From contig CP089275.1 of NCBI GenBank assembly GCA_023920165.1, forward strand, positions 5,580,001-5,644,000: a stretch of DNA of 64,000 nt. The letters are read 5' to 3'. The notes under the pieces were generated by a model, which was not told where the DNA came from, did no database searches, and saw only the letters and a list, made by a program, of their open reading frames with translations. Numbering within the stretch: position 1 is the stretch's first letter; every line of letters starts with the position of its first letter. Below, piece after piece: positions 39,659-40,883 of the stretch. The translations under genes were made by a program, and so were the position numbers. Origin of the DNA: Curvularia clavata. Taxonomy: Eukaryota.

Positions 39659-40883
39659 ATGTTTTCTAAGGAACCTGAAGGCTTGACGGCGCTTTTGAGA
39701 CGCGTGGGTACGCCTCTGAAAGTAGTTTGGCTTATGGGGAAATCTGATTTGCCTGCCGTGACTATACCTACAGTAGGGTCTCATTCACGTCTTTAAGCGT
39801 TGAAACTGACTAGTATTCAGATCATGACGGCACTTGCTCTCTCGGGAAGACCGAGTTTGCCTGCGTTGCTCAAGGGATTGCTTTGGAATGAGGTACACCT
39901 CCTAGCGTTTCAAGTATGTACAAGAAAATCCTTTGATGATAAGACAACGATGATACTGATGTATGCGAAGGTTAAGAACCAGGTGAGTACGAGGAGGTTG
40001 GATGTTATTGGACAGCCGATGCTAATGCTGGAGACAAGATTCTTGGGATTGAAGAAGATCGCATTGCAAAACCGCATCGACCGCTTCCCTCGGGTCTCAT
40101 ATCTTTGTCGACTGCATACACACTGTACCATTGCCTTGTTGTATGCATATGGCTTGCGGCACTTCATTGCAACACTGTCCTCTGTACAGCACTGTTTACA
40201 TTGACAATGATAGTTTACAACGAAGGGGGGGTTGCCACTATTCCTGGCCTGAAGAATCTCCTTGGAGCTATTGGTATCATGTGCTTCTGCTGGGGGACTA
40301 CAATTACATTCGGTAAGACTATGGGGTGTGCAGATGGCTTGCATGGAGACTTTACTGAGTCAAGACAGATGGCGGAAAACAGTTGGAAGGCAAAAAGGCC
40401 ATGGCTGTCCTCATTTGTGGCTGCATATTCTCAACAACTGTGAGTTATTTGGATTTCGTCTGGTGGAAGCTGAACTAAATCTGTTCATGGTAGGGACATG
40501 CTCAGGATCTTCGAGATCGATCAGGGGATGCGATCATGGGTCGAAAGACGATTCCACTGTTGCTTTCTCCACTGTGGGCTAGGTGGTCGCTTGCAGTATT
40601 GATTGCAGTGTGGACGGCAGGCCTCATTGCTTTGTGGCAGCCACCCCTCATTGTGTCAGTCGCCTTTATAGTACTCGGGCTACGGACTTTGGGCGGTTAC
40701 CTTGCAAGCTACGAAGAGAAGGATGATTACGTTTCATACATATATTACAGTGTAAGATCTTCACAGCCAATACCGGAATGAGGTGCTAACAGATGCCAAT
40801 AGTTCTGGCTACTAGGAAGTAACCTTCTTCCTTTCTTTTCTCGGATAAGAGGAGAATTCGATTCGAACCCTATTGGCGCATGA
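39659..40883 (+). CDS. UbiA-superfamily membrane prenyltransferase / terpene cyclase, 300 aa, 7 exons
   Basis: Exons 39659-39772, 39821-39913, 39971-39982, 40039-40312, 40369-40439, 40494-40751 and 40803-40883 splice into one stop-free frame. Motifs: NQILGIEED..AKPHRPLPSG, YNE.G...KNL and HAQDLRDRSGD...GRKTIP. Confidence 0.87.

Follow-up and report, generated by a model that had tools for sequence, protein, structure and literature searches.

Does the region 39659-40883 on the plus strand of the window, the whole 64-kb stretch of Curvularia clavata DNA analyzed here, encode an intact UbiA-type terpene cyclase, and does a 12-nt exon with part of a catalytic motif belong to that gene? Our results indicate that the locus is very probably an intact, transcribed seven-exon gene coding for a 300-aa integral-membrane terpene cyclase with the UbiA fold, of the Fma-TC family (UTC). 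The gene adds one member to the known Fma-TC/UTC family and does not represent a new type of enzyme. Among the fungal enzymes that form scaffolds, the UbiA-type terpene cyclases are a recognized but thinly characterized class. The reference enzyme used here is Fma-TC of Aspergillus fumigatus (af520, fmaA; P0057 in our set), the beta-trans-bergamotene synthase of the fumagillin cluster that catalyzes the opening step toward fumagillin, for which the original paper is reportedly that of Lin et al. in 2013. The value added by this locus lies in a stand-alone, diverged lineage of the Pleosporales, and in a micro-exon that is a conserved family feature and breaks many deposited models.

Gene structure and the 12-nt exon

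Joining the exons by coordinate gave a plus-strand gene with a CDS of 903 nt, coding for 300 aa plus the stop codon (Table 1). Its six introns, of 48, 57, 56, 56, 54, and 51 nt, are all bounded by GT..AG and have a CTRAY-like branch site close to the 3' end. The start ATG at 39659 is the first ATG past an in-frame stop. The exon and intron coordinates, the 300-aa product, and the VKNQ micro-exon claimed by the first-pass annotation were all reproduced to the base. In BLASTP, the spliced product was 62.8% identical to the Bipolaris maydis protein P0001 (283 aa) over residues 1-274 with no gap, and 60.4% identical to Fma-TC over 273 aa, also with no gap (residues 20-292 of the model against 15-287). 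Since these alignments run without a gap over all six junctions, they strongly support every splice site, including those of the micro-exon.

Table 1. Features of the cyclase gene and its surroundings (window positions, except where a metagenome locus is named).
Feature	Position	Strand	Description
Exon 1	39659..39772	+	114 nt, residues 1-38; starts at ATG; gapless with the P0001 N-terminus
Intron 1	39773..39820	+	48 nt, GT..AG; junction backed by the gapless P0001 alignment
Exon 2	39821..39913	+	93 nt, residues 39-69
Intron 2	39914..39970	+	57 nt, GTATGT..AG
Micro-exon 3	39971..39982	+	12 nt, phase 0-0; V70 K71 N72 Q73
Intron 3	39983..40038	+	56 nt, GTGAGT..AG
Exon 4	40039..40312	+	274 nt; ILGIEED (rest of motif I), KPHRPLPSG, YNEGG; Pfam UbiA
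Intron 4	40313..40368	+	56 nt, GT..AG; junction also in deposited model P0004
Exon 5	40369..40439	+	71 nt
Intron 5	40440..40493	+	54 nt, GT..AG; junction also in deposited model P0004
Exon 6	40494..40751	+	258 nt; motif II Q192-D193-L-R-D196-R-S-G-D200; Pfam UbiA
Intron 6	40752..40802	+	51 nt, GT..AG; spliced in RNA-seq contig X15; Fma-TC gapless across the junction
Exon 7	40803..40883	+	81 nt including the stop codon TGA
P450, two exons	18895-19938 and 19976-20575	+	
PRTase ComF-like gene	21297-22151	+	E 1.1e-104
Long ORF	28463-29929	+	488 aa, no Pfam match at E 0.01
Upstream neighbor ORF	36322-38703	+	793 aa, no Pfam match at E 0.01
Downstream neighbors			DUF498-type gene (PF04430, from the precomputed domains of P0004); CHD1-like_C gene
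Beta-lactamase-family gene	43544-44869	-	
SDR	48012-48953	-	
Flanking P450 in locus L007	452-2135	-	
Flanking P450 in locus L001	720-2475	-	

The micro-exon was compared with related loci. N72 and Q73, the first two residues of motif I, are invariant in our alignment A1 of 15 sequences, and the pattern AGNNNAARAAYCAGGT occurred once in the 64-kb window against 0.03 occurrences expected (100 shuffles, with a match in 3/100). Scanning metagenome contigs with A1 yielded 29 loci, namely 9 with introns, 19 uninterrupted bacteria-like ones (L011-L029), and L004, a C-terminal part with no motif-I exon. Among the 9, L003 begins at the motif exon and hence is not assessable. All of the 8 assessable intron-bearing loci (L001, L002, L005, L006, L007, L008, L009, and L010) carry an exon NNNAARAAYCAG between AG and GT, 50-64 nt ahead of the next exon; two pairs are near-duplicates (L005/L006 and L008/L010), so that six distinct sequences are represented. 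In these loci the micro-exon is 12 nt long, reads NNN AAR AAY CAG between AG and GT, and codes for VKNQ or IKNQ, and the exon downstream begins x-x-G-x-E/D/Q-E-D. In the uninterrupted loci, no break separates N-Q from the remainder of motif I (19/19). Judged from sequence comparison, the 12-nt micro-exon is conserved among the fungal genes of the Fma-TC family. In the literature searched, we found no paper tying a micro-exon to UbiA-type or other terpene cyclases in fungi, and according to one abstract no functional microexons had been described in filamentous fungi before 2024 (PMC11121469). Because the exon lies in phase 0-0, its skipping would stay in frame. As such a skip would remove the invariant metal-site Asn, the inclusion or skipping of an ancient micro-exon may serve fungi to turn terpene production on or off after transcription; regulated skipping of this kind is pure conjecture, and we consider it very unlikely.

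RNA or read contigs from four runs, X15, X9, X11, and X16, chosen from 16 listed, were aligned to the gene. In X15, from a root metagenome, an RNA-seq contig of 223 nt with one mismatch and a low depth of 3.7 has 40803 directly after 40751, exactly as expected from the splicing of intron 6, and it extends to 40983, so that the 3' UTR measures at least 100 nt. Intron 6 is the only one confirmed in this way; exons 1-5, including the micro-exon, have no RNA cover in the four runs, and with no RNA contig over 39583-40188 among them, they are silent on expression of the 5' half. From comparison only, we infer that the micro-exon is included in C. clavata mRNA. The contigs of X9, X11, and X16 retain introns and thus behave like DNA or unspliced RNA. 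They also provide allele variants. The codon of L194 is CTT (40509-40511) in the window, and all three runs read TTT (Phe), with T at 40509, so L194 is specific to the window allele. The other coding variants, which bring the total to four, are synonymous at 40305 and 40523 and I271V at 40740.

A separate observation concerns one contig of X9, which lacks the 54 nt 40646-40699. The missing stretch is bounded by CT..AC, which on the minus strand would read GT..AG. Sense introns 4, 5, and 6 are retained in this contig, and an X11 contig with the same organism code has 40646-40699. The gap could reflect the intron of an antisense transcript, an allele with an in-frame deletion of 18 codons, or an assembly artifact.

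Family membership, catalysis and likely product

The first-pass annotation had placed the protein in the UbiA superfamily, and the domain and fold analyses agree with this. They were run on single exons and on the orthologue P0001 (63% identical) rather than on the whole spliced protein. Pfam PF01040 (UbiA) matched exon 4 (E 3.4e-8, 33.5 bits, profile positions 45-129) and exon 6 (E 4e-8, 33.3 bits, profile positions 159-244), each piece falling just below a cut-off of 34.2 bits that is set for whole proteins. The full-length relatives P0001, P0057, and P0007 scored 84-86 bits against the same cut-off (85.1 for P0001). The hydropathy peaks of the window protein agree with a UbiA fold made up of helices that cross the membrane several times. 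For P0001, AlphaFold2 run on the 15 rows of A1 gave a model with a pLDDT of 85.6 and a pTM of 0.81, which Foldseek matched to DGGGP synthase 6m31 (E 2.8e-7, TM 0.64) and ApUbiA 4od5 (TM 0.64). Together with AfUbiA 4tq3, these structures share the fold with the P0001 model at TM 0.60-0.65. No solved UbiA-type cyclase was among the Foldseek matches of this model, and its nearest structures are all prenyltransferases. In the PDB sequence search, DGGGP synthase was the only significant match (E 2.2e-6); matches to importin at E about 0.5-1 were discarded as noise. NCBIfam returned weak, partial matches to bacterial and archaeal prenyltransferase models, far under their cut-offs.

The metal-binding motifs differ from those of prenyltransferases. 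UbiA prenyltransferases carry NDxxDxxxD and DxxxD, and UbiA-type terpene synthases such as Fma-TC, EriG, and Tps1A/2A carry NxxxG/AxxxD and QDxxDxxxD (PMC9835599). Motif I of the window protein, N72-Q-I-L-G76-I-E-E-D80 (NQILGIEED), fits the first terpene synthase form, and motif II, QDLRDRSGD (Q192-D200), fits the second. The canonical first motif NDxxDxxxD is absent, with Q73 and G76 in place of its second and third acidic residues. In a HMMER alignment of Fma-TC with DGGGP synthase, N-Q-x-x-G-x-x-x-D stood opposite N-D-x-x-D-x-x-x-D. With NQ aligned to ND, the micro-exon therefore provides what corresponds to the first Asn and first Asp in the canonical metal-binding motif. Compared with the canonical UbiA prenyltransferases, the window protein has its metal motifs at the same positions and shares K-P-x-R-P-L-P-S-G with them, but it is only 14-19% identical to them, and they carry NDxxDxxxD and transfer a prenyl group to an acceptor rather than cyclizing it. 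The wording in which the first-pass annotation gave the cyclase motifs (NQ..ED and QD..D..GD) is close to the published form (PMC9835599).

The same motifs recurred in database relatives. A word-indexed search with exon 4 found P0001 (Bipolaris maydis) and P0004 (Curvularia clavata, 576 aa), and P0001 as the query then gave 54 relatives. In an exhaustive search it matched 1219 representatives at E <= 1e-3, 413 at 1e-10, and 24 at 1e-30. Among 143 newly listed representatives, QDxxDxxxD was present in 102 of the 109 that are at least 240 aa long, and most of those newly listed show N-Q, then E-D 5-7 residues on, and then N-K-P-x-R-P.

Phylogeny points in the same direction. An IQ-TREE tree was built with 32 rows and rooted on the myxobacterial P0005; the 31 rows besides the window protein were chosen from 84 proteins by taking longer models, one per species or lineage, and canonical prenyltransferases, EriG, and Tps1A lay outside this set. 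The window protein paired with that of B. maydis (support 100/97), and a Phaeosphaeriaceae protein joined the two at 90/84. All fall into a 17-row ascomycete clade (100/100, stem 1.26) that also contains Fma-TC and mFmaA of Metarhizium robertsii (P0007, EXU98497). Relatives from Mycena and Schizophyllum, 35-46% identical to the window protein, are split off by the stem of 1.26 changes per column. The published motif pair and the 100/100 clade with Fma-TC and mFmaA support the proposal that this is a terpene cyclase rather than a prenyltransferase. We consider it highly likely, by analogy with these relatives, that the protein is a terpene cyclase acting on FPP.

The likeness to Fma-TC is close. 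The two proteins are of similar length (289 vs 300 aa), belong to the same clade, match Pfam UbiA, and have in common the motif I form N-Q-x-x-G-x-x-E/D-D and motif II QDxxDxxxD. The window protein differs by D75L, R93L, Y126F, Y156F, and F194L. It is 57-59% identical to mFmaA, a member of the same clade. mFmaA is nearer to FmaA than to the window protein, with a published identity of 76% (PMC9600275) and 73% here for the Metarhizium anisopliae protein P0075. Two basidiomycete enzymes, Tps1A and Tps2A, are UbiA-type alpha-bisabolene synthases (PMC9835599), and like the UTCs of the HEx study they are UbiA-like FPP cyclases of the membrane that carry both motifs (PMC9835599; 10.1101/247940). The basidiomycete UTCs, however, belong to other clades and form other products; Tps1A and Tps2A are likened to the window protein from their published descriptions. 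One further source, PMC13213483, was set aside, as the cyclase described there is AsR6-like and not of the UbiA type.

The reaction of Fma-TC has been described (PMC12434612), and a mechanism for the window protein can be proposed from the family, not from the protein itself. Motif I (N72...G76...D80) and motif II (D193, D196, and D200) would hold Mg2+, which would bind the diphosphate of farnesyl diphosphate and ionize it. With no aromatic acceptor, the allylic cation would then cyclize via the bisabolyl cation. In Tps1A, Asp-to-Ala mutations in both motifs abolished the product (PMC9835599).

Both mFmaA and FmaA form beta-trans-bergamotene in FPP-producing yeast (PMC9600275). As these two proven bergamotene synthases lie on separate branches of the clade, bergamotene is the default guess for the window enzyme. 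By analogy, the product is most likely beta-trans-bergamotene or a closely related bisabolyl-derived sesquiterpene; for beta-trans-bergamotene itself, we would put the chances a little short of even. The window protein keeps 38 of the 40 invariant columns of A1, the exceptions being L194 in motif II, where 15/15 sequences have F, and V in place of the invariant L63. Within the clade it is more divergent, as it is about 57% identical to eight other members that are 63-73% identical to one another, and it departs at 35 of the 145 columns invariant among those eight. The departures include D75L (inside motif I), R93L, Y126F, and Y156F, among which D75L and R93L are common to B. maydis. Its branch is long, and sister genera would be expected to show more than the identity of about 62% found with B. 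maydis. Since this is a diverged Pleosporales lineage, the product may differ from bergamotene. A literature search on bergamotane chemistry in Curvularia, Bipolaris, and Cochliobolus gave nothing specific among the matches listed.

Gene neighborhood and alternative readings

Pfam searches with 24 large ORFs of the 64-kb window found no PKS, NRPS, or second terpene synthase. The description of the gene as stand-alone holds within the 64-kb window, where no backbone gene was found and the sole P450 lies 19 kb off. That P450 is unrelated to the cyclase-flanking P450 of the relatives' loci (27% identity over 117 aa). The surrounding genes are given in Table 1; two GH43 genes were also found by Pfam further out in the window. 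In the 793-aa upstream ORF, hydrophobic segments occupy the N-terminal part, and the middle is charged and of low complexity. The P450 of the window adjoins the PRTase ComF-like gene, an unusual pairing.

The known systems are arranged differently. Fma-TC is clustered beside a multifunctional P450 (PMC7020470), and the window gene has no such neighbor; mFmaA lies in a supercluster with tailoring genes (the ovalicin-type mer-f3 subcluster). In the metagenome loci L001 and L007, the gene directly upstream of the cyclase is a divergently transcribed P450, with 76% identity between the P450s of the two loci. L007 has an alpha/beta-hydrolase downstream, and L001 a large ORF with a methyltransferase domain. 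The arrangement in L001 and L007 resembles a conserved fumagillin/ovalicin-like core. Within the 64-kb window, we did not find the fumagillin/ovalicin-type layout of a cyclase beside a multifunctional P450 and tailoring genes. The gene is a candidate for making a sesquiterpene of the bergamotene type in a plant-associated, Curvularia-like fungus, and it lies outside any fumagillin-like cluster.

The absence of an adjacent P450 in the window, unlike in L001 and L007, would also fit a decaying or orphaned copy of the cyclase with little or no activity, left over from a lost fumagillin/ovalicin-like cluster and carrying a damaging F194L. The long branch, with just 62% identity to B. maydis, points the same way, as does the residue itself, since F194 is invariant in A1 and three other runs carry the F codon where the window allele has L. 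Against decay, the frame is intact, 12/12 splice sites are canonical, 38 of the 40 invariants are kept, and a spliced transcript exists (X15, intron 6); the other runs differ from the window at four coding positions, with two synonymous changes and one I271V. Moreover, QDL stands for QDF in the myxobacterial P0005 and in several 50%-identity representatives, so that L is tolerated in the wider family. We judge decay unlikely, and favor a functional cyclase gene.

Whether that enzyme might instead be a UbiA-type prenyltransferase for an aromatic or other acceptor, like COQ2, UbiA, MenA, and the fungal meroterpenoid prenyltransferases, also has to be weighed. Names lend some weight to the idea, since the Pfam family is called 'UbiA prenyltransferase family' and some relatives are entered as '4-hydroxybenzoate polyprenyltransferase' in the source databases, and the nearest solved structures are all prenyltransferases. 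Those source names are automatic, however, and the PDB matches are 14-19% identical. Motif I has Q73 and G76 instead of the second and third Asp of NDxxDxxxD, and two proven cyclases (PMC9600275) share the protein's 100/100 clade, which makes a prenyltransferase highly improbable. The gene model itself could be read with the micro-exon unused, as a single intron of 125 nt (39914-40038) giving a 296-aa protein without VKNQ. Skipping stays in frame, the site has no RNA cover, and the deposited models P0008 and P0068 are built exactly so. Yet the invariant N72 and Q73 would be lost with the skip, and Fma-TC would no longer align without a gap. In addition, the micro-exon and both its splice sites are kept in 8/8 assessable loci, its pattern is unique in the window, and at 125 nt the intron would exceed twice the length of the other four. 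This last reading is extremely improbable, and the seven-exon cyclase gene remains our preferred interpretation.

Deposited models of the gene and its relatives

The first-pass annotation had warned that gene finders could mis-model such a gene, and the deposited C. clavata model and many others are indeed wrong. P0004 (576 aa) is 100% identical to part of the exon-4 query and is probably the deposited model of this very gene. It maps to 40207-40311, 40368-40766, 41351-41959, and 42311-43171, so that it starts inside exon 4 and has neither motif I nor exon 7, and it is a fusion with the two genes that follow, which carry PF04430 and CHD1-like_C, respectively.

We surveyed 83 non-bacterial database models (P0001-P0084 minus P0005). 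The expected F-x-x-x-N-Q junction was found in 43/83. In 6/83, N-Q follows a different upstream part (4 join exon 1 to the micro-exon, and 2 retain an intron), and in 14/83 the motif exon is present without N-Q directly ahead of it, P0008 and P0068 being exact VKNQ skips. The remaining 20/83 have no recognizable motif-I exon, and 10 of these start at a Met aligned with residue 110 of our model. About half of the 83 deposited relatives therefore deviate at or ahead of the micro-exon, in a set that includes many A. fumigatus strains and some fragments and with a regular expression that misses a few divergent sequences. An exon of 12 nt that holds two catalytic-motif residues would explain why automatic annotation is often wrong for such genes.

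These results are in line with the HEx study, which traced failed expression to a wrong intron prediction in a UTC gene (10.1101/247940). The same study counted 326 clusters with a UTC in 581 genomes (10.1101/247940). The present locus gives a concrete, checkable cause of wrong UTC intron calls, namely a conserved 12-nt exon that carries N-Q. It also suggests a rule for repair: an exon NNNAARAAYCAG, bounded by AG and GT, should be sought 50-64 nt upstream of an exon starting x-x-G-x-E-E-D. Applied before synthesis or expression, this rule would mend many models. A second recurrent mis-model was seen in P0019, P0037, P0038, and P0051, in which exon 1 is joined to the micro-exon (LPT directly followed by VKNQ) and the equivalent of exon 2 is skipped.
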